From an uncultured virus (IMG/VR IMGVR_UViG_3300046517_000572) (taxonomy: Duplodnaviria > Heunggongvirae > Uroviricota > Caudoviricetes): 20,000 nt of DNA. The stretch lies in the IMG/VR virus record IMGVR_UViG_3300046517_000572. The stretch is one strand, 5' to 3'. Every line of letters starts with the position of its first letter. The first letter of the stretch is position 1. Of the stretch, positions 1 to 10,238 are shown piece after piece. A program made the translations under genes and the position numbers. Below the pieces are notes generated by a model that saw only the letters and a program-made list of their open reading frames with translations, was not told where the DNA came from and searched no databases.

Positions 1-499
1 GCAGATCGAACTGTTGCTGCAATTCCTTCTGCACCGTGTTGAGGTCATTGCCCTTCTGCACGCCGCGCATCACGATGCCCTCGACGCGCTGGAGATGCTG
101 CGACGCGATCGACTTGATCAGCCCGACGTTCTCGGTCACCGCGCTGTTCATCACCGCCTGTATCTCGGGCGAGACCTTGAACTGCACGGTCCAGCCCGCC
201 TGATCGAGTAGCTGCTCGATCCGCTGCGTCGAGTGCGCCGCCGACCGGGCGCCCCACTGGCCCGCGACATCGGGGGCGATCTCATCGAAATTCGACTGCC
301 AGCGGTTGCCGAGTTCTTTCATCGTATCGATGATACGATTAGCCGCGCGGGGGTCTTCGCGCCAGCGAGCCGACAGCCAGTAGTCCAGCGAATTGTTCAT
401 CCGGTCGATCGCGCGCCAGAGCCGCGAGCGGTAGACCGCGACCACGCCCGCATTGGGATGCACAGGCGGCAGCACGTTAGGTCTGGGCGGCTGCGCCAT
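1..499 (-). CDS. Phage minor head / head morphogenesis protein (MuF / SPP1 gp7-like); 3' end runs off the window
   Basis: Absent from the ORF track (no stop in window). Manual translation from ATG at 499: MAQPPRPNVLPPVHPNAGVVAVYRSRLWRAIDRMNNSLDYWL...AGWTVQFKVSPEIQAVMNSAVTENVGLIKSIASQHLQRVEGIVMRGVQKGNDL. GAGG RBS upstream. The ENVxLIKSI...VEGxVMR segment and the position downstream of the portal are typical of this family. Confidence 0.8.
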   Translation of the reverse strand, partial: MAQPPRPNVLPPVHPNAGVVAVYRSRLWRAIDRMNNSLDYWLSARWREDPRAANRIIDTMKELGNRWQSNFDEIAPDVAGQWGARSAAHSTQRIEQLLDQAGWTVQFKVSPEIQAVMNSAVTENVGLIKSIASQHLQRVEGIVMRGVQKGNDLNTVQKELQQQFDL

Positions 500-523: not shown

Positions 524-1114
524 TTACGCCTTGCGCGACCGCGCACCGCCAGCAAGGAAGTCTCTTGTGCTGGTGCTGCCCGACAAATGACTTTCGAGTT
601 CAGCCGCCGTATGTCCTTGCGCGCTAACGCTACCGTCCGTCACATGGGTCCAGACGTTATTGCCGAGATCGTGGCGCGGGTAAACGTGAATGCGGTCACT
701 CGTTCCCTTCTCCCGGCTTTTATACATCTTATGCACAAGGTGGTCTCTCACCGGATCGTCCGATCCTGCTGTGCCCAATTCGACATAGCCGTGCTTGGCG
801 ATCGGCGCCTGCATGGCGCGGTGGTAGTCCTGCATGTCCTTGGGCAGCGATGACAGGTGTTTCGCGTTGTGCGCGCCATCCTCGCCGCCCACGCCACCGC
901 CGCCGCTGGTCCACTCGCCAGAGGCGGCGCGTGGCTGATCGGCGTCCTGCGCCCCGGCTTCATCTTCAGAAAAATCTGGCAGTGAGTCGATATCCACGAT
1001 CTCGTCGGGGCTTTCGATCGGCTTGGTGCCGAGTGCTTCCGCCGTGAAATCGTGGATCACCTTGCCGCCGACTGAGGCGACCCCCATCAGGGGCTTTTCG
1101 GTGTTGTCCGACAT
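524..1114 (-). CDS. Hypothetical, probably virion-associated protein with acidic leader and the AQDA-DQPRAASGEWTSGGGG tag
   Basis: ATG at 1114 overlaps the portal stop (TGATG), with GAGG upstream. GC3-rich codons. Lies between portal and MuF and shares a peptide motif with the portal extension. Confidence 0.8.
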   Translation of the reverse strand: MSDNTEKPLMGVASVGGKVIHDFTAEALGTKPIESPDEIVDIDSLPDFSEDEAGAQDADQPRAASGEWTSGGGGVGGEDGAHNAKHLSSLPKDMQDYHRAMQAPIAKHGYVELGTAGSDDPVRDHLVHKMYKSREKGTSDRIHVYPRHDLGNNVWTHVTDGSVSAQGHTAAELESHLSGSTSTRDFLAGGARSRKA

Positions 1115-1615
1115 CACTCGCCCTCTACATGCTTGCCCGAGATCATCCGGATCGTGGTCTGCGCCCCCGGCACGATCTCGTAGACCTCGAATTGCTGGCC
1201 GTGCATCAGTAGTAGTTCATTCTCGTTCAGACCGGAAACCGTGTCGGCCCCCAGCGCGCGGGTGCCCTTGCGACAGGTCATCTCCAGGATCACCGGCTTG
1301 CCGCTGAACGCGGCCTTGTCAGCCATGCTCGTGGAGACAAATCCCTCGGTGTTGTAATAGCACGGCAGCCCGGCCTTGAGACCAGCCAGCCAGCCGGGGA
1401 TCAGCTTGCCGATCGTGGTCGATCCCACACCGCGCCGCAGCACCACGTCCTCGGTCAGCTTGGTTTCCTCTCGCTTGTAGAGTGAATGAACCGCCTTGAC
1501 CGGGGCGACCGCGTGCGAGGTATCGGCATCGATCTGACCGCGCAGCACGCCGTTCATCGAACCCGAGCCGCTGCCGCAGTAGGACTCGGTGGCTGACTTG
1601 GCTTTATGATCCACG
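1114..1615 (-). other. Domain: VIP2/C2-like (R-S-E clade) mono-ADP-ribosyltransferase
   Basis: Y..S..MNGVLRG helix, VLRRG (Arg at 1432-1434), FVSTS (STS at 1327-1335), ENELLL (E-x-E at 1216-1224). Confidence 0.88.
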
Positions 1616-4600
1616 CTGTCCCAGAACTTCTGCTCCAGTGACGGCGCGATCTTGCGCGCCTTCGCGGATTTGGTGCTGGATAGCTGGGTGGCGCCATTAT
1701 AGGTTTTATTCGCCCAGGCGAGAACCTCCGCGTCAGCGTGCTTGGTGCTGTTGGGCTTCGATGGTGACGGCGGCGCCTTGGGTGCCGCTGGTGCCGCTTT
1801 CGGCGCGGCTGGCGTCGGCACGCTAGGTGTCGCGGCATCGGCAAACCCGACACCGGGGATCGGTTCGCCGCCCAGCGACTTGATCCAGCTATTGGCGAAC
1901 TTGGCACTGTAGCCGTCTGGATAGTTCACCACGGTCGGATAGGTCTTGAGTTGCTCGACCTTCTCCTCGTTGGTGCCTGTGCCTGACGCGATGTCGTAGA
2001 GGTTCTGCTGATGCTGCGACTTGGCGTTCGGCGCCGGTCCCTGCGGTGGCATCGGTGGCTTTGACCAGCTTGCGGCGACCTCGTTCTTCAGCTTGTTGAC
2101 CTGAATCTCGGCGTAGTCCTTATGCCCCGGCGGCGCAAACGTGTTTTCAATGATCGTGTAATTGATGGCGTCGATCTTCTGCTGCGCCGTCAGCCCAGGA
2201 TCGGCCACGATGTCATCGACCTTGCCTTTCATGCCGATATTCTTGGGCGTTGGCGGGGTGGCGCCGTTCTCTTGCGCGACCTTGGCCATGATCACGGCCT
2301 TGGCGTAGCCGTGTTCGGCGCTGCCTTCCTTGATCACCCCGCTGGCGAGGCCCTTGTTCATGTAATCCAACAGCCCGGTCGATTTGGTGAATCCCTTGTC
2401 TGCCATCGAGTGGATGTTCACGATGGTGCCGTTGCCTTTGAACATGGCGGGCAGCGGCGGAATGATCCCCTGTTCGATGCCCGCGATGGACTGCGCCGCC
2501 GTGCCCGGTTCCGCTGTCGGTGGCTCGCCCTTGATCGCCGCGATCAGCTTCTTGGCGTAGTCCCGCGTCGGCCCCGAACCGCCCTTGGCGTCGCTCTCAA
2601 GCTGCTTGATCTTGTTGTCGGTCTTCCAGTGACCGTGCGCGGCGACTTCCCACATCTCTTGCTGCACCGCCGTGCCGTCATGCGGTGGCAGGCTTTCGCC
2701 CATTTCCTGTTCAAGCTGGTTAAGCCCCGCCGTCGCCTCGCTGATGTCGTGACCCTGGAGTTCGGCAGCTTTCTTCAGGTCTTTCAGCGTATCGATCTTC
2801 TGCTGCAAATGCCCTGGCCCGGTCAGGATCGCATGCACCGCCGCGATCGGCACCTTGCCGCCTTGTGGCGTCGGTGGCGGCGCGGCTGGATTTAGCTGGA
2901 AGTTCTCCAGCGGATCAGCCGCCGCCATCTTCTCCATCTCGGCTTCGGACGGCGCGCCTTGCGAGGGTGGCCCCTCGACGCCGCCCTTCATCTTCACCGC
3001 CTTGCCCAGCGCGCCCTTCGGCATGCTGTGGTGATCGGCCAGATGGTCGATCAACTGGTTCATGAAGCCAGCGACGTTGCTGGATTTCATCTTGCCAGCT
3101 TCGGTCTTCATCAGCGTGGCGAGTTCGTGCGGATTATCATTGCCGGAAGCGATATGCTCCTCCAGCGCCTTTTTCATCTTGGCGCCAGCCGGTCCCGCAT
3201 ACTTGGTTAATTCCGGCACCGGCTTGGACGGTTTCGGAGCCGAGCCACCGCCGCCGCTCGCGCTGGTGGCGAACTTGCCGCCCTCGTCGCGTTTGACCGC
3301 TGACTCGTCCCACTCACCGATCATCGCATCGGCGGCGCCCGCGAAACTCTCGATCGCCTCGTCAGACGCGGGCAGCGCATCGGCGCGCTTCTTGATGTCG
3401 TTCTTGCGCGCGATCAGCTTGTCGGCCAGCGCATCTTTCTCGGCTGCCGTGCCAGGACCGTGGGTGTGAACCGCCGCCCTGATCGCGTGATCGGGAATCG
3501 AGGTCACCCGCTCCGCCGATTCCCGCAGCCGCCGGGGCGACATCTCGCCAAACACTTTGGCAGCAAGCGACTTCTGGCGCAGGGTATCCCACTCGGTCGC
3601 CTCGTTGCCGAACGCCTCGCCCTTGGGACCGCCTTGGGCGCGATAGAGCAACGCGCCGCCGGTATCGAGCGTGTGCATCTCGCCGTCGAGGCGGGCTTGG
3701 TTCCAGTCGTTCTCGTGCTGGCCCATACCGATCACGTCCCAGTTCGCCAGCCACGCATGGGTGGCGAAATTCTTCTGTGCGGCGCGCCGGTCCTCCTTGT
3801 TGTCGATGTCGATGTTCTGCTTGCCGTGGTGCCACTCCGACGCCGTGCCCAGCTTGCCGCCAACCGTGGCGGGCATAATCGGCAGCACGGGCGACCGCGC
3901 CATCTCGTAGAGCCGCGTGGCCAGCAACTCGTTCTTGGCGTGGCTCTCGCTCTTGCTCTCCTTGGCGTAGAACCGCCGCCCGCTGTCGGGGTCTTCGTAT
4001 TCGCCGCCGGGGTTCGATCCCAGCGCCCCGCCGACCTTTTTCATCTTGGAGAAATCGAGCGGGTGGTGTTCGTCGCCGCCCTCGATCGTATGCTGCGCGA
4101 TCAGCCGGTCGATCGGCTTGTTGAGGTGCTGGTGGAGTTCACCGGGCGGCACCAGCGCCACCGCCTCGCTCTCCCAGCCATGCTCAGACGGCGAGCCGCC
4201 GATCCGGCGGGCGTAATAGTAGCGCGCCTGCGAGGTGTCGCGCTGGGCGTCGCCAGCGAAGCCGGTCAGTTCGACCCGCAGCCCCGACTCCTCGAAAGCC
4301 TCCTTGATCGCGGTCGAGCGCAGGCTGTCGCCCTTATCGACGCCGCCCTTGGGGAAGCTGGCCTTGTAGCCGCCATAGGCGTTGCTGGGCCGGATGGTCC
4401 AGACCCGCCCGTCCGGTTCCTGCACGATGACGCCCGCCGCCTGCTTGCGCCCACCCTTGAGCGGCGGCACCTCGGGTTCCTCAAACTCCGGACCCTTGTC
4501 GGCCTCCGCCTGCCAGCCCTCGCTGGTCGTCGGGTGGTCGTCCCACGGCTTGAACGCCACGCCATGCAGGCTGCCGCTGGCGGGCTTCTTGGTGCTGAAA

Positions 4601-7104
4601 GTGACCGCACCGGCCGGAACGTCAGCATTGCTGGCGTTGGTTTCATGGGAAACACCCGGCAGGGAGGCTGACGTTCCGGCGCCTGTCTTGGGGGCCTTGG
4701 CGCCTTTGGCGCGCTGCGCCTGCTTGGCGGTCTTCGCGGTCGCGGCGCCACCGCCGGAACCGAACTGGCCATTATCGGCGCGCTTGATCTTGCTTTCGTC
4801 CCACTCGGGATCAGCGTCCTGTGCCTGCTTCGCCGGTCGGCGCAGCATCGATTCTGTGGTCGAGAAATCGCGCTTGCGGCCCTTGTTCGGGGTGAAGCCG
4901 AATTGCTTATAGAAATCGGTCAGCCGGGCCACGCTACTGGCGCCGAAATGTGTCGATGGCGTCAGCGCGATGGTCTTGCCGTTCGCGTCGGCATACGCCG
5001 TCAGGCTGTGCATTGCCTGGGTGCCGATGCCCTGACCGCGTGCCTCCTTGGGCAGCGCGATCTTGCTCAGTGTGATGGTGTCGCCGTGTTCGCTCAGATG
5101 ATGGCTGATGCCGTGCTGGTCCCAGTGCGCCTCGACATGCGCCAGCGTCGCCGGGGCAGCACCGCCGCCCGAACCGAACTTACCAGACGCATCGCGTGGC
5201 TCGTTGGGATTGAAAGCGTCGGCGCCAAGCTGGACATGGCCGCGATCGTGCGGCCCCAGGTGGACATGGATCGCCGCGTCGGGGTCTTGGGTCACCACTT
5301 TGGTGTGGCCCTCGCCCACTTTCAGGCCGTTTTCGTCTTCCTCGTCGCGCGAGCCTTTGTTGGGGTCTGGCGCTTTGGGCGATCCACCCGCCTCGCCCAT
5401 CTTGCCAGGACCACTGGTCACGGGCGCAGGCGAGCCGCCAGCGGGTTTCGACAGACCGGATGGGCCAGCGCCGCCGGGGGCGCCTGGAGGCCCACCGGGT
5501 CCGCCGGGAGGCCCTCCAGGGCCACCACCTCCGCCCATGCCGCCCAGTGGGTCGGGTTCCTGATTAGGCGGCGGAGGCGCAGGGGTGGAGAGGTCCAGCC
5601 CCTGATAGGGGCTGTCGGATTCGTCGGCAAGCTTCTGCCTGATCTCGTCGGGCGAGAGAACCCCCGCGTTGACATAGACCGCGTCGAGGTCGGCGTCCGA
5701 CTTGCGCGCGGCGGCCTCCTCCTGCTCCGACATCTCGCGCAGCGGTTCCCAGGCATGGGTGATCGCCGGATCGATCTCGCCAAACAGCGATAGCTGCATG
5801 ATGTTGAGGATCGTGGTCAGGTTGGCGTCAAAGAAATTACCCTGACTGGCGTGGATGAACTGCGCCCAGACCTGGAGTTCGCCCTCCGATGTCGCGTTCA
5901 GCCCAGATGGCGAAATTCCCAACAGCACGACAAGAGGAATGCCAACAGCAGAAGCCATATGCTCCTGCGACTGAGCCTGGAGATGATCGAGCGATCCCAG
6001 CGGCGCCGAGACATTCTTGAAATCCTCGGTGGTCTTATCCAACGCCATCAGGTTGGAATTGTCGCGGAAGTAATTGAACAGCGCGGCGCGCATTTTCATC
6101 TGCGTCGCGGCGCCCGCGTTCATCACGCTGCCCATGTTGGTCATCAGCACGGGCGTCGAGAAACTATGAATGAGATCGGAGACGCTCTGACGTGTGCGCA
6201 GCCAGTTGTCCACGTAGGGTTTCGCCATCTGCGACAGTGACAGCCCGCCGAACGAATAGGCGGGCTTCATCATGTCGGGCATCTCGCGGCCGATGAACGG
6301 CAACAGCCGGGTGCGATGCACCTCCTTGCCCATCACCCACCACGTCTGCGGCAGATAGAAATTCTCCTTCAGCGGATCGTTGGCGTTATACATATTCGGA
6401 TAACACCACATCGGCTCGACCACGCGGACGCCTTTAAGCCCGCCCTGCTTGATCATGCGCGGATCGGGCGGCAGCGGTAGTTTCATCTGCGCCCGATCGT
6501 CGCCGTCGCCCATGTCGAGGTAGAGATGCGAACGACCGAAGAACCCGTCCATCAACGCCAGGACGGTGAACTTCTCGCGCAGCTTGTGGTGCTTGATGCA
6601 GGCTTCCAGCGCGCTGATCTTGTCCGACTTGTCATCCTTGCCCTTGGCCTGGATGCGAAACCATCGGCGGGTCATATCCTTGGCGATGGTCTCGGAGATG
6701 CGGCGATACTCGGTGCGCTGCGACAGTTCCGCCAGATAGGGGAAACCGAGCCAGTGCATGCCCTCGGTCAGCAGCCCGTTGAAGCCGCCGTAATTGAACA
6801 TCGGGTTGTTGACATCGTCCATCGCCATCGGACGCACGTCTTGCGGCACCACGCCGGGCAATGGCTGTGCGGGCGTGAACAGGCGGCGGATATCGTCCGG
6901 TGTCGCGGTGCGCGTCGAGTAAAGCTGGAACGGCGTCGCGTTGTCCTCGCGCAGCGCGCCCATGTTGATCAGCGAATGATAGATCGCGGCGGGATCGAAC
7001 CCTTGGGGAGACGCTGACGGGGCCGGTGGCGCGGCTGGAGTCTGGGGCGCAGCGTCACGCGCCAACAGCCCCAGCAAACCCCACAGGTAATCGGCAATCG
7101 CCAT
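1114..7104 (-). CDS. Portal protein (DUF1073-type) fused to GNAT, Nudix, kinase-like, repeat and ADP-ribosyltransferase modules
   Basis: Single 1996-aa ORF directly after terL. Residues ~90-505 show portal-like motifs (GFPYLAELSQRTEYR, GKEVHRTRLL, KPAYSFGGLSLSQ, IPLVVLLGISPSGLNATSEGEL, GVLSPDEIRQKL), followed by a Pro/Gly linker and enzyme motifs. Confidence 0.9.
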   Translation of the reverse strand: MAIADYLWGLLGLLARDAAPQTPAAPPAPSASPQGFDPAAIYHSLINMGALREDNATPFQLYSTRTATPDDIRRLFTPAQPLPGVVPQDVRPMAMDDVNNPMFNYGGFNGLLTEGMHWLGFPYLAELSQRTEYRRISETIAKDMTRRWFRIQAKGKDDKSDKISALEACIKHHKLREKFTVLALMDGFFGRSHLYLDMGDGDDRAQMKLPLPPDPRMIKQGGLKGVRVVEPMWCYPNMYNANDPLKENFYLPQTWWVMGKEVHRTRLLPFIGREMPDMMKPAYSFGGLSLSQMAKPYVDNWLRTRQSVSDLIHSFSTPVLMTNMGSVMNAGAATQMKMRAALFNYFRDNSNLMALDKTTEDFKNVSAPLGSLDHLQAQSQEHMASAVGIPLVVLLGISPSGLNATSEGELQVWAQFIHASQGNFFDANLTTILNIMQLSLFGEIDPAITHAWEPLREMSEQEEAAARKSDADLDAVYVNAGVLSPDEIRQKLADESDSPYQGLDLSTPAPPPPNQEPDPLGGMGGGGGPGGPPGGPGGPPGAPGGAGPSGLSKPAGGSPAPVTSGPGKMGEAGGSPKAPDPNKGSRDEEDENGLKVGEGHTKVVTQDPDAAIHVHLGPHDRGHVQLGADAFNPNEPRDASGKFGSGGGAAPATLAHVEAHWDQHGISHHLSEHGDTITLSKIALPKEARGQGIGTQAMHSLTAYADANGKTIALTPSTHFGASSVARLTDFYKQFGFTPNKGRKRDFSTTESMLRRPAKQAQDADPEWDESKIKRADNGQFGSGGGAATAKTAKQAQRAKGAKAPKTGAGTSASLPGVSHETNASNADVPAGAVTFSTKKPASGSLHGVAFKPWDDHPTTSEGWQAEADKGPEFEEPEVPPLKGGRKQAAGVIVQEPDGRVWTIRPSNAYGGYKASFPKGGVDKGDSLRSTAIKEAFEESGLRVELTGFAGDAQRDTSQARYYYARRIGGSPSEHGWESEAVALVPPGELHQHLNKPIDRLIAQHTIEGGDEHHPLDFSKMKKVGGALGSNPGGEYEDPDSGRRFYAKESKSESHAKNELLATRLYEMARSPVLPIMPATVGGKLGTASEWHHGKQNIDIDNKEDRRAAQKNFATHAWLANWDVIGMGQHENDWNQARLDGEMHTLDTGGALLYRAQGGPKGEAFGNEATEWDTLRQKSLAAKVFGEMSPRRLRESAERVTSIPDHAIRAAVHTHGPGTAAEKDALADKLIARKNDIKKRADALPASDEAIESFAGAADAMIGEWDESAVKRDEGGKFATSASGGGGSAPKPSKPVPELTKYAGPAGAKMKKALEEHIASGNDNPHELATLMKTEAGKMKSSNVAGFMNQLIDHLADHHSMPKGALGKAVKMKGGVEGPPSQGAPSEAEMEKMAAADPLENFQLNPAAPPPTPQGGKVPIAAVHAILTGPGHLQQKIDTLKDLKKAAELQGHDISEATAGLNQLEQEMGESLPPHDGTAVQQEMWEVAAHGHWKTDNKIKQLESDAKGGSGPTRDYAKKLIAAIKGEPPTAEPGTAAQSIAGIEQGIIPPLPAMFKGNGTIVNIHSMADKGFTKSTGLLDYMNKGLASGVIKEGSAEHGYAKAVIMAKVAQENGATPPTPKNIGMKGKVDDIVADPGLTAQQKIDAINYTIIENTFAPPGHKDYAEIQVNKLKNEVAASWSKPPMPPQGPAPNAKSQHQQNLYDIASGTGTNEEKVEQLKTYPTVVNYPDGYSAKFANSWIKSLGGEPIPGVGFADAATPSVPTPAAPKAAPAAPKAPPSPSKPNSTKHADAEVLAWANKTYNGATQLSSTKSAKARKIAPSLEQKFWDSVDHKAKSATESYCGSGSGSMNGVLRGQIDADTSHAVAPVKAVHSLYKREETKLTEDVVLRRGVGSTTIGKLIPGWLAGLKAGLPCYYNTEGFVSTSMADKAAFSGKPVILEMTCRKGTRALGADTVSGLNENELLLMHGQQFEVYEIVPGAQTTIRMISGKHVEGE
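1860..2880 (-). repeat. About five degenerate ~55-70-aa protein repeats separated by Pro-rich spacers
   Basis: Recurring elements QQKIDTL / DNKIKQL / QQKIDAI / EEKVEQL and DYAKKLI / GYAKAVI / DYAEIQV / KFANSWI, each unit preceded by a PP-containing spacer. Confidence 0.55.
3385..4056 (-). other. Domain: PI3/PI4-kinase / HipA / CtkA-like atypical kinase
   Basis: Gly-rich loop GGALGSNPGG, FYAK (Lys), KNELLA (Glu), WLANWDVIG...N catalytic loop, LDTGG (DFG-equivalent). Confidence 0.75.
4090..4450 (-). other. Domain: Nudix hydrolase
   Basis: AAGVIV strand, FPKG, and Nudix box GGVDKGDSLRSTAIKEAFEESGL (4279-4347), matching G-x5-[ED]-x7-[RK]E-x-x-EE-x-G-L. Confidence 0.9.
4830..5155 (-). other. Domain: GNAT acetyltransferase
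   Basis: Motif A LSKIALPKEARGQGIGTQAM (RGQGIG at ~5023-5040) and motif B RLTDFYKQFGF. Confidence 0.88.
5340..5590 (-). repeat. Low-complexity Pro/Gly linker between portal core and extension
   Basis: PAPPPPNQEPDPLGGMGGGGGPGGPPGGPGGPPGAPGGAGP... Confidence 0.8.
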
Positions 7105-7110
7105 GCAGCC

Positions 7111-8541
7111 TCAATTGAACGGTAGCTGACCTCCCAGCATGTCGGGCGGGAGATGGATGCCCAGTTTGCGCAACTCGTCAGGATCGAACCGCATCGGCGG
7201 TTGTTGAGCGATCGCGTTAAATGCTCTGCTCGTTGCGTCAGGATCGTCGTCGTGTGCGCCCTCGGGGAAGTTCTCTAATTCCGAGAACCACCGCTCGTTC
7301 CAGCGTCCGCGCAGCACCAGGATGTTGCCGACCTCGGCCTGCGAGGAGAACGGCCCGAACCGCGTGACTTTATCACCCGACTCAGGACTGCTTTCCACGA
7401 TGTAGCCTTGCAGCATGCGGGTCAGCGCCATGACTTGTGACTTGCCCGCCTGACCGGGGTCTTGCGGCAGCGAGGTGGTGTTGTCGTAGCCGTCCTGCAT
7501 GGCGTAATTCAGAATGCGCCGATCGACCTCGGCGGGCGAGCCTCGGAACGCGTCCGAGTGCAGGATGATCCAGCGCCCGTCATGCGTCAGCCCGATCTTG
7601 ACGCAGCACGTCCAGTCGGGGTCCGACGCGTCTTCCTGTTCCGATGCCGCCAAGTCCCAGCCGCGCACCGTCTTGGTGCAGACCGGCGGGATATCGACCA
7701 CCTGACACCACGAGCGGTTAAAATAGAACCCGGCTTGCGGGCGAATTTTCCAGTTGCCGTTGAGCAGGCGTTCCCGCTCGACCTTCGGCAGCATCATCAG
7801 GTTGCCGCGATAGCCGGGGTCGGATCGCGTCAGCGCCGGATTGTCGGCCAGCCGGGCAGCGACGAAGGTCAGACTTTTGATGTCTTCCTTGTCATAGCCG
7901 GTGGCGTTCATCGCCTCGCGTTTATTGTCGAACCACACAAGCTGATCATCAGCGCCGCGCACGAAATAGCGCACCACGCCGGAACGCTCCTGGATCGGAT
8001 AGCCGGTCTGCTGATCCACCCACCACTCGATCAGTTCCGCCACCCAGCTTCCGGCGTCGGCGTTACAGGTCGCCCGTATATACGGACGTATCGTGGTCGG
8101 TGAGCGGTTGCGGGAGATCAGATAGAAGAACTGCTGCTTGGTGAAGGTGGTCAACTCGTCGAAACAGATGCAGCCGATCTGGCTGCCGTGCCAATCGTAA
8201 ATCGTGTTCTCGTGTTCCAGATGCGCCAGCTTGACCATGCCGCCCGCTGGCCAGCGCCACTCCAGCCGATGGTTAATCGGATAGCCCTTGGCGTGGTAGT
8301 AGAGCTTCTCGGTCTCCGACCACAGCCCGCCAGGGCGGCGCAGATCGACCATCGTGCGGCGGAAGATCACCGTGTCGAAGCCGGGCACCTTCTGCGGATA
8401 GCGCACGCCCTCCAGCAACAGCGCGTAGGATTTGCCGGAACCGGCGGCACCGCCAAAGATCGCAATGTCGGCTTCTGAATTTAGAAACTTCTCCTGCGGA
8501 CCCGGCTGCGGCTGGATGCGTTTCCTGACCGCTTCAGCCAT
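7111..8541 (-). CDS. terL: Terminase large subunit
   Basis: Walker A GGAAGSGKS, Walker B CICFDELT, RATCN coupling motif, and C-terminal nuclease motifs RGWDLAAS, PQDPGQAGK, HDDDPDA. Confidence 0.95.
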   Translation of the reverse strand: MAEAVRKRIQPQPGPQEKFLNSEADIAIFGGAAGSGKSYALLLEGVRYPQKVPGFDTVIFRRTMVDLRRPGGLWSETEKLYYHAKGYPINHRLEWRWPAGGMVKLAHLEHENTIYDWHGSQIGCICFDELTTFTKQQFFYLISRNRSPTTIRPYIRATCNADAGSWVAELIEWWVDQQTGYPIQERSGVVRYFVRGADDQLVWFDNKREAMNATGYDKEDIKSLTFVAARLADNPALTRSDPGYRGNLMMLPKVERERLLNGNWKIRPQAGFYFNRSWCQVVDIPPVCTKTVRGWDLAASEQEDASDPDWTCCVKIGLTHDGRWIILHSDAFRGSPAEVDRRILNYAMQDGYDNTTSLPQDPGQAGKSQVMALTRMLQGYIVESSPESGDKVTRFGPFSSQAEVGNILVLRGRWNERWFSELENFPEGAHDDDPDATSRAFNAIAQQPPMRFDPDELRKLGIHLPPDMLGGQLPFN

Positions 8542-9043
8542 CGTCGGTGCCGGTCTTCAGGTCGTCCGCATCGCCCTCGATCGTCGGCGGCTCGTCCTCG
8601 GGGCGGTCGCGGCCGTTCTCGGGCAGATAGAACTGGAACGTCTCCTCGGGGTTGTCCTCGGACGGATCATACTGATCCGGCGTGTAAGCGCCCTTCGGTT
8701 GCCACGCCTCGCCGCCGTGGCGGTCGAGCCAGTATTTCGCCGCGCCGATATTGCCGCCCAGCGCCTCGCGCACGATGACGAACCCGACGCGCCCGGTGAT
8801 GTGGTCGCGGCCTTTGGCGATCTCGTGTTTGAAATGCTTGTTGAGCGTCGCGACGTTGATCTTGAGGATATCGGCCATGACCTGTCTGGCGGCGCCGTTG
8901 GCGGCGAACACCATGACCGCGTGGCGCTGGTCCTCGGACGGCACGAACTCGGGGATCGGTCCCTTGCTTTCGCCGCGTAGCAACCGGTGACCCGGCGTGT
9001 CGGGCACCGGCACCAAACCTTCATCCGGTTTAATTCGCGGCAT
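8534..9043 (-). CDS. terS: Probable terminase small subunit
   Basis: Overlaps the terL start. HTH-like segment (RQVMADILKINVATLNKHF), GNIGAAKYWLDRHGG motif, and acidic tail with FYLPENGRD. Confidence 0.75.
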   Translation of the reverse strand: MPRIKPDEGLVPVPDTPGHRLLRGESKGPIPEFVPSEDQRHAVMVFAANGAARQVMADILKINVATLNKHFKHEIAKGRDHITGRVGFVIVREALGGNIGAAKYWLDRHGGEAWQPKGAYTPDQYDPSEDNPEETFQFYLPENGRDRPEDEPPTIEGDADDLKTGTDDG

Positions 9044-10238
9044 CGGCCATTTCTTCCTCGGAGACCTCGATCATCGCCTCGCGGCCGGTGAACGCCTCCC
9101 AACGCTTGATCGTCACGTCGCAGTAGGCCGGGCTGATCTCGATCGCGGTGCAGCGCCTGCCGGTCATTTCGGCAGCGATGATCGTGGTGCCTGACCCGCA
9201 GAACGGATCGATGATCAGATGGTTCGGTCGCACCCATTGGGTGATGATATGCGCCACCTGATCGGCGGGACGCGGGCAGGGATGCTGACGCTGGATATTG
9301 TCGGGCTTGGCGACCTGGGACGCGGTATCGGCCACATGCCAGTCGCGGTTATCGGTGCGCGCGGTCCACGGTTCGGCGCCGGGCTTCCACCACACCAGGA
9401 TCGCGTCGTAGCCGTAATACATCGGCCCCTTCGCCATCAGCACGAAATTGCGCGCGCCGCAGAACAGCCGCCAGTCGCGCGGGAACCACGCAGCGAAATT
9501 GCGGATGTTACGCGGCGACTGCCAGAGGAACACGGGCGCGCCGTCAGGGCACAGCGCCTCGGCCTGTTCCACGATCCGCCAAATCCAGGCGCCATAGCCG
9601 CCGTCATAGGATTCCGGCGCGTCGTTGTGCTGATCGTAGCGAAAGCCGATGCCATAGGGCGGATCGGTCACCACGGCATCGCCGCCAGCGAGCCTGGGAA
9701 GCACGTCCAGGCAGTCGCCGCAGTAGAGGGTATGATCGCCCAGCCGCCACACGTCACCGGGCTGGGAACGCGGCACAGGCGGCGGCGCGGGGATGTCGTC
9801 GGGATCGGTCAGCCCGGCGGTCGGCTTGCCCATCAGGTTGCCCAGTTCCAGGTCGGAAAACCCGGTGAGCGACAGATCGAAGCCGGATAACTTGAGGTCG
9901 GTCAGTTCGGTCTGGAGTGTCATTTCGTCCCAGCCCGCGCTTAGGGCGAGCCGGTTGTCAGCCAGCCGGTAGGCGGCGATCTGCGCCTCACTCCAGCCCT
10001 TGGCGATCATCACCGGCACCGATGTCAGCTTCAGCTTGCGCGCCGCCAGCACGCGCCCGTGGCCCGCGATCAGGGTGCCCGCCTCGTCCACCAACACCGG
10101 CATCGAGAAGCCGAAGGTCGCGATCGAGTTGGCGATCTGCTCGATCTGGGCGAGCGAATGAGTGCGTGCGTTCCGCGCATACGGCATCAGCGTGTCGAGG
10201 TCGCGGCGCTCCACGCGGTCGGCTGGCCAGTCGGGCAT
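9030..10238 (-). CDS. ParB/Srx N-terminal domain fused to a beta-class N6-adenine/N4-cytosine DNA methyltransferase
   Basis: Start moved to ATG 10238 (GGAGG 5 nt upstream). ParB motifs PYARNARTHS, LIAGHGRVLAA, YRLADNRL. MTase motif IV DPPY precedes motif I DPFCGSGTT. Confidence 0.92.
   Translation of the reverse strand: MPDWPADRVERRDLDTLMPYARNARTHSLAQIEQIANSIATFGFSMPVLVDEAGTLIAGHGRVLAARKLKLTSVPVMIAKGWSEAQIAAYRLADNRLALSAGWDEMTLQTELTDLKLSGFDLSLTGFSDLELGNLMGKPTAGLTDPDDIPAPPPVPRSQPGDVWRLGDHTLYCGDCLDVLPRLAGGDAVVTDPPYGIGFRYDQHNDAPESYDGGYGAWIWRIVEQAEALCPDGAPVFLWQSPRNIRNFAAWFPRDWRLFCGARNFVLMAKGPMYYGYDAILVWWKPGAEPWTARTDNRDWHVADTASQVAKPDNIQRQHPCPRPADQVAHIITQWVRPNHLIIDPFCGSGTTIIAAEMTGRRCTAIEISPAYCDVTIKRWEAFTGREAMIEVSEEEMADAAN

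Follow-up and report, generated by a model that had tools for sequence, protein, structure and literature searches.

A short peptide, hereafter the tag, occurs four times in the head operon of an uncultured tailed virus (Caudoviricetes; IMG/VR record IMGVR_UViG_3300046517_000572), of which one stretch of 20,000 nucleotides (the window) was analysed. Three copies lie within a single open reading frame (ORF) of 1,996 amino acids (aa), P0001, in which a portal protein is fused to a series of enzyme domains, and the fourth lies in a separate 196-aa ORF, P0002, as the initial annotation of this DNA had described. We propose, with a probability of roughly 0.6, that the tag is an N-terminal signal of virion cargo that is retained on the protein, becomes exposed either through cleavage or because translation starts there, serves to load the effector into the particle or hold it there, and leads it out with the genome. 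This proposal builds on features read from sequence: the recurrence of the tag, its position at the start of modules, its head-gene context, the co-variation of the preceding residues with the head protease, and its placement at native N-termini.

All four window copies are encoded on the minus strand and translate as previously claimed: copy 1 at 5161..5226, copy 2 at 4747..4824, copy 3 at 3244..3339 and copy 4, in P0002, at 893..955. The residues before the first three are GAD (aa 627-629, a candidate cut), AQD (aa 761-763) and AAD (aa 1257-1259), respectively; copy 4 is degenerate and lacks the aromatic-Asp-Glu part. A six-frame scan for the pattern R...G.[FW].{1,6}GG returned five matches, namely the four copies and one on the plus strand just behind a stop codon, and P0001 alone has three, a number that none of 5,000 shuffles reached (mean 0.017). 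Since this pattern was derived from the copies themselves, independent proof comes from the profile search below. The labels first given to the modules behind the copies also hold, GNAT, Nudix and ADP-ribosyltransferase (ART) by Pfam and the kinase through a model match to CtkA/HipA-like kinases without Pfam; the "repeats" reported ahead of the ART domain do not, the best self-match scoring 35 against a shuffle mean of 32, with no significant internal repeat. It had further been argued that the tag is conserved as protein and diverged as DNA, and hence under selection. The DNA of the copies is indeed divergent (47-65% identity), and 14 of the 38 residues common to them use different codons, but the peptides are not close, with only 2-9 of 19 residues alike per pair. 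As the window copies are only loosely alike, selection is shown by family-wide conservation and not by these four. The orthologue of copy 2 in the related locus L012 is identical at 18 of 19 aa, with three synonymous changes.

At E <= 1e-3, a profile built from 30 copies matched 3,057 protein clusters, with up to 20 matches per protein; at 1e-10 it matched 293. From 150 listed clusters of these 3,057 and the window's two proteins (152 proteins), the core of the tag was read as [WF]-[DN]-E-x-x-H-P-R-x-x-x-G-[KRQ]-[FW], followed by glycines; a longer-loop variant exists. Of the consensus originally proposed, the Arg, the Gly, the [FW] and the glycines stand and the family adds [WF][DN]ExxHP before the Arg, whereas "xxDA" proved to be a lineage-specific signature outside the tag. 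In the 152 proteins, 512 of 539 copies were kept after filtering, with a median spacing of 262 aa; the first tag lies within 100 aa of the start in 78 proteins, and the last within 60 aa of the C-terminus in just four. Among 124 aligned copies, the Arg and the Gly never vary, whereas E, H, P and F reach at least 90%, most of these positions having been fixed by the search pattern; in the profile-found set, HP reaches 82/90% and [FW] 99%. Core positions are retained equally well in internal and in N-terminal copies (5.5 vs 5.6 of six).

No Pfam family, pre-toxin models included, matched any of the 30 tag copies at E <= 10. The predicted structure of the tag has one short helical turn and two bridges (core predicted local distance difference test, pLDDT, 85), and its comparison with 48,161 chains gave no structural match, which is uninformative because the model has just 32 residues. 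A likeness to the DNA minor-groove hook of NF-YA/CCT-like proteins found no support, as there was no PDB or Pfam match and the tag is net acidic; such tests are weak for so short a motif. Of 30 tagged proteins scanned, seven have a head domain by Pfam, 13 have cargo-type domains only and ten have nothing; the cargo types (ART, Nudix, GNAT, kinase, LPD3, LPD13, PBECR, 2H, TopoIB and zeta) overlap those of polyvalent virion effectors. Topoisomerase IB, zeta-toxin kinase, inorganic pyrophosphatase and 2H domains recur as tagged cargo (L013, P0007, P0012, P0024, P0025, L165 and L181). In the stand-alone tagged genes of L107 and L120 the tag is followed by another short motif, YRQN, and the gene upstream in L107 carries YRQN with a decayed tag.

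Among cultured phages, one of three tag queries gave 12 records by tblastn and the other two gave nothing, so that this search undercounts carriers. In Orimi01, phiE058 and PhiXhv-5 the tag lies between portal and cargo, behind an Asp-containing stretch. In the PDB, the sole match worth noting was a half-tag (E 0.03) in a baseplate hub loop of phage 7-7-1 (gp113, 9RKU chain Af, aa 83-96; L238:3903-5267); it is kept in the Milano and OLIVR4 hubs, which are 82-85% identical over the aligned part, and is degenerate in a Synechococcus phage hub.

Comparison of the tagged proteins with one another indicates that tags mark module boundaries. In an all-against-all BLAST, homology segments crossed 109 of the 512 tags compared with a mean of 221 for random sites, and when tags and random sites were masked alike the crossings fell to 14-23 versus 102-111. 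Tagged cargo was also seen between protease and scaffold, or at the N-terminus of protease and protease-capsid polyproteins (L132:6775-8487; L137:608-3454; P0004; L249:9540-12050). An IHVH-type motif precedes tag copy 1 (window 5266-5283, minus strand) and occurs in related scaffolds (L229, L230); [IV]H[IV]H was rejected as a targeting signal of general use, being upstream of only four of the 512 tags.

The genomic context of the tag points to the virion. A degenerate DNA pattern identified at least 126 stretches in viral contigs, with 78 loci listed with flanks; removal of 16 duplicates or near-duplicates and of one locus without a profile-confirmed tag left 61, in which most tagged ORFs and a selection of their nearest large neighbours were scanned. 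Head or packaging genes lie in or beside the tagged ORF in 53 of these 61 motif-found loci, a count that has no random-position baseline: 21 have a head domain in the tagged ORF (Pfam), 13 have such neighbours by Pfam and 19 by PHROGs, one of the 53 counting a capsid gene ~7 kilobases (kb) away that was added by eye. Together with the boundary analysis, this bears out the expected association of the tag with head genes and domain boundaries. A search with the portal gave 104 loci (80 viral, 24 genomic), of which 21 are tagged, many of them near-duplicates, and in these the tag is always in the portal ORF or in same-strand downstream ORFs. Docking of the tag to portal, MuF or capsid, as suggested earlier, is not supported: the tag is found with at least five portal classes (PF06381, PF04860, PF05136, PF06074 and PF05133), and MuF, present in only 22 of the 61 loci and 15 of the 33 long ones, was rejected as an obligate partner. 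Nor is the tag exclusive to head genes: certain tagged genes that stand alone are situated in tail regions or ahead of the small terminase, and others in putative toxin-immunity cassettes of chromosomes.

The residues preceding the tag co-vary with the class of prohead protease. Asp is found there in 19 of 21 DUF1073/DUF2213 loci, in none of nine HK97/S78 loci and in four of 40 among all other loci, and Lys in six of the nine HK97/S78 loci compared with one of the 21 DUF1073/DUF2213 loci. Within a protein, pre-tag classes agree at 0.78 versus 0.34 when shuffled, and a downstream control gave 0.64 versus 0.59. Sites of the form [AGS][AMQLHF]D[AESD] number four in P0001, one before each tag and one at the portal N-terminus; the latter, AMDD (aa 94-97; 6814..6825, minus strand), is a candidate prohead-protease site that would trim the portal. 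DUF2213 is encoded in three of five related records searched, and in G002 and G003 its gene begins ~4 and ~12 kb past the portal fusion. Similar residues occur near capsid N-termini: ALDA or AADA is at residue 40-41 in both capsid genes found in related records, and cultured capsids have AMD in three of four cases and AND at the same place in the fourth. AMD is also present N-terminally in the portals of E217 and phiE058. In the heads of Pa193 and E217, the capsid protein is resolved from residue 66, right after AMDS at 62-65 (PMC11456595; PDB 8FRS, 9B40, 9B41), the first 93 aa of the Pa193 portal are missing from liquid chromatography-mass spectrometry (PMC11456595), and the phiE067 portal gave bands of 51 and 48 kDa versus 55 predicted (PMC7266877). 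Heads of the HK97 type accord with Lys: the capsid of 7-7-1 lacks residues 1-164, with Lys at 163 (PMC12796354), and mass spectrometry of phi12 shows cutting after Arg or Lys (PMC8569155); the specificity of T4 gp21 is treated in PMC12991175. Because they track protease class and match capsid N-termini, the pre-tag residues are probably a prohead-protease site.

Seven loci have no protease in their gene lists (two with SPP1-type portals by Pfam, three with a PHROG portal match and two assigned by gene order; one is partly covered). In these, 10 of 11 tags lie no more than seven residues from a start codon with a Shine-Dalgarno sequence, whereas in 40 other loci, not counting 14 unassigned ones, this holds for two of 77 tags. 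Each of the 11 ORFs has a single tag. An internal protease is absent from SPP1 (PMC6813328). Tags directly at the start where no protease is seen are as predicted for a signal that needs a free N-terminus. The earlier suggestion that the tag would sit at the new N-terminus of each effector is therefore supported from both sides, by residues that track the head-protease class and by tags that adjoin the start codon in loci lacking a visible protease gene.

For the cleavage, packaging, ejection and partner of the tagged proteins we infer the following sequence of events. The portal polyprotein would be incorporated into the procapsid with its cargo inside, and a DUF2213 prohead protease would cut it at [AG]-x-D sites, releasing a GNAT unit (~aa 630-763), a Nudix and kinase unit (764-1259) and an ART unit (1260-1996); the same protease would remove the leader of P0002. 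All products would then start, within a few residues, with a tag of 13-17 residues and a glycine linker. The tag would keep or load the free cargo in the head while scaffold fragments exit, and at infection would lead it out with the genome, after which the enzymes may modify host proteins and nucleotides. As the tag is unchanged across unrelated head architectures, a general partner is likelier than one named head protein, with packaged DNA, the ejection channel and other tag copies as candidates. Its conservation inside portal fusions, which need no targeting, argues for a role after cleavage.

Several observations weigh against this proposal. Loci within a head class are kin, so that Fisher p-values are too favourable, and the no-protease group was drawn post hoc from members that are probably kin as well. 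The four xxD sites of P0001 compare with 3.2 expected by chance (p 0.4), such that only their placement is telling, and two related scaffolds are weakly enriched (four sites each vs 1.3 expected, p ~0.04). The protease gene would lie beyond the window, and the nearest record, a 9.6-kb fragment, gave no DUF2213 match. With a mean net charge of -1.4, the tag is poorly suited to simple DNA binding. Portal cargo can in general do without a tag, given that just 21 of the 104 portal-related loci carry it and that the E217 portal has a tagless C-terminal extension. In eight of the 61 motif-found loci no head gene could be assigned, and some chromosomes have tagged genes at a distance from phage genes.

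These chromosomal matches are rare (four of 401, two of 301 and one of 201 genomes, in overlapping sets with limited candidate scoring). They include one prophage head gene; a match in G308 (E 3.8e-4) was taken as a false positive, being a glutathione-transferase-like protein by eye. In G247, G397 and G659, a Lys-preceded tag heads toxin-like domains amid housekeeping genes, in tandem in two of the three. G659 has two tandem tagged toxin-like genes (C13; L255:7460-10035), the second followed by two Imm-NTF2-2 (NTF2-fold immunity) genes, and the tagged toxin-like genes of G247 (C7; L247:9011-11634) and G397 (C39; L248:9271-9942) are followed by small unannotated genes, with dnaG and IMPDH, and SHMT, respectively, as neighbours. 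No virion genes were recognised within ~10 kb of the latter two cassettes, and G247 has one integrase there. An S78 protease is encoded beside capsid genes in all three genomes, and S78 is also present in four of 14 control genomes; two of the three have Pfam domains of the gene-transfer-agent (GTA) type. In a GTA-like cluster of G659 (C30), the portal carries a CdiA-type RNase (RNase-A) domain attached by way of Lys and an abbreviated tag-like peptide (L252:10374-11804), and a second tag-like peptide opens an ORF between protease and capsid (L252:6550-7305), both likenesses having been judged by eye. In the literature searched around these cassettes, polymorphic toxins were met only as a reference entry in a review. 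We treat the cassettes and GTA-like clusters of these three genomes as a lead only. It is tentative, and on balance doubtful, that the tag is a portable signal for ejection or loading, independent of lineage, that phages expose at a free N-terminus through translation start or through any head protease available to them and by which they swap injected anti-host enzymes, and that bacteria have adopted it for toxins in GTA-like particles.

Other functions for the tag can be envisaged. It may act only during assembly, binding scaffold, portal or capsid in the manner of the T4 capsid-targeting sequence (CTS) and having no job after maturation. T4 provides the precedent, and such a signal would suit the stand-alone tagged genes without other head link (11 ORFs in the seven no-protease loci, with native N-terminal tags). 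We consider it unlikely, however, given that the tag is downstream of the likely cut and would be kept, is fully conserved inside portal fusions where targeting is superfluous, and remains constant across five portal contexts, with MuF in a minority of loci. Unlikely too, in our estimation, is a pre-toxin-like junction, which would serve the protease as its prime-side recognition element or act as a block of DNA homology for exchanging modules. This would account for tags at module boundaries, for close portal relatives with different cargo behind the same tags, and for tandem tag, toxin and immunity cassettes resembling polymorphic-toxin orphans. Yet the tag stays the same when the class of protease differs, it persists at native N-termini in loci without a visible protease, and the window copies are only 47-65% identical as DNA.

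Another conceivable site of action is the host cell, where the tag would work once the cargo has entered or while it is being expressed, through localisation to a host target or DNA or through N-terminal stabilisation, and would have no function in the particle. The independence of the tag from head type, the tagged genes in bacterial chromosomes and tail regions, and the partial copy in the baseplate hub loop would all be compatible with this. We regard it as unlikely as well, because the tag is strongly tied to operons of the virion and to the signatures of protease class; the S78 head protease, moreover, is encoded in a capsid cluster in each of the three chromosomes that have orphan cassettes, although S78 also occurs in some control genomes. 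A neutral linker relic, copied along with the modules, might explain why copy 4 is degenerate and why the window copies have few residues in common, but is hardly credible beside the invariant Arg and Gly, the conservation of HP and [FW] in the profile-found set, and internal copies that show no decay. The retained N-terminal cargo signal is the reading that we prefer.

The tagged genes of the window belong to a minus-strand phage head operon consisting of terminase, the 1,996-aa ORF, the 196-aa ORF and a MuF-type gene at the edge. P0001 (1114..7104) is a single open frame and is 99-100% identical, over the covered parts, to L001, L002, L003 and L018. Its DUF1073-type portal domain (aa 123-475; 5680..6738; PF06381, E 1.9e-80) is homologous to the Pa193 and E217 portals. 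Module 1 is a GNAT acetyltransferase (4885..5115; PF00583, E 3e-4, above its cut-off; phrog_10691), and module 2 comprises a Nudix hydrolase (2a, 4111..4449; PF00293, E 1.9e-12) and a putative CtkA/HipA-like kinase (2b, 3340..4077) that has no Pfam match and whose AlphaFold2 model (pLDDT 82) has CtkA as its best Foldseek match (E 2.4e-6, template modelling score 0.63). Module 3 includes unannotated segments split by Pro/Ala-rich linkers, without a Pfam match (3a, 1705..3243), and an ART domain of the Alt/VIP2/C3-like type (3b, 1162..1644; PF03496, E 4.3e-10) with a weak match to the Alt-like phrog_802. At least two unrelated conflict-enzyme domains are thus combined in one polypeptide (GNAT, Nudix and ART by Pfam, and the modelled kinase fold), and portal relatives that are 73-86% identical carry other cargo behind their tags, giving a mosaic domain content.

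P0002 (524..1114, minus strand) has an acidic 54-aa leader, AQD, the degenerate tag and an orphan domain. It had no Pfam, PHROG, NCBIfam or usable Atlas match, and its relatives among the sequences fetched are identical copies only. The MuF-type head morphogenesis gene (2..499, minus strand; phrog_324, E 9.8e-29) leaves the window and encodes 266 aa in L018; in the closest relatives (L012, L014, L018) it is followed by small unrelated genes and not by a protease. On the other side of P0001 lies the terminase large subunit (7111..8541, minus strand; PF03237 and PF17289), and directly upstream of the terminase genes is a fusion of ParB-N with an N6/N4 DNA methyltransferase (9030-10238, minus strand).

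For most tailed phages, how proteins are chosen for heads and for ejection is poorly known, T4 being among the few systems understood in detail. A signal of 15 residues common to thousands of proteins across unrelated head types would make the question of head loading testable in cultured phages, including Orimi01 and phiE058. The tag also offers a sequence handle for listing injected anti-defence enzymes, a third of the 30 tagged proteins having no Pfam domain by which to recognise them, and if sufficient alone it could be used to address payloads in phages for research or therapy. The cassettes in chromosomes hint that GTA-like particles may carry toxins; if bacteria have indeed adopted the tag, toxins would be delivered by such particles along with DNA.

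Polyvalent effectors fused to portal or MuF have been described before (PMC5512222, PMC9503650, PMC3482391). Like the window protein, those of PMC5512222 and PMC9503650 are multidomain products of head operons with ART, Nudix, GNAT, kinase, PBECR, 2H and LPD domains, are fused to portal, MuF or head peptidases, and are predicted to be packaged and injected; the main-text passages on them describe no inter-module tag or co-variation with protease class. The mostly open-access main texts searched yielded no mention of the tag, of its link with protease class or of its form at native N-termini; a full-text search by motif spellings listed matches unrelated to the tag, the passages of PMC13728456 covered contain nothing on it, and the supplementary files of Iyer 2017 (PMC5512222) could describe the motif. 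Polymorphic toxins (PMC3482391) likewise have a conserved junction before a variable C-terminal enzyme and orphan toxin-immunity cassettes, as in G659 and perhaps G247 and G397, and a MuF or phage-packaging route belongs to that system (PMC3482391). Unlike in these toxins, the tag matches no Pfam pre-toxin model, several tagged units are chained in one window protein, and no immunity genes were recognised beside the window modules. In the Pbunavirus head of E217 and Pa193 (PMC11456595), portal and capsid are homologous, AMD(S) directly precedes the first resolved capsid residues, and the C-terminal portal extension is unresolved; the E217 head region, unlike that of the window phage, has no tag.

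The functional parallel drawn by the initial annotation, whose interpretation of the tag is partly supported, was with the internal proteins of T4. There too, in the internal proteins and Alt, a short N-terminal peptide is placed on unrelated cargo, with a link to the prohead protease and an ART among the cargo (PMC9026906), and in this sense the two may work alike. The analogy fails in its details: the T4 CTS is a propeptide of 10-19 aa that binds the core, is removed by gp21 and belongs to T4-like phages (PMC9026906), whereas in all four window copies the tag is C-terminal to the candidate cleavage site. It would therefore stay on the cargo, and differs further from the CTS in being repeated within polyproteins and in spanning many head types.

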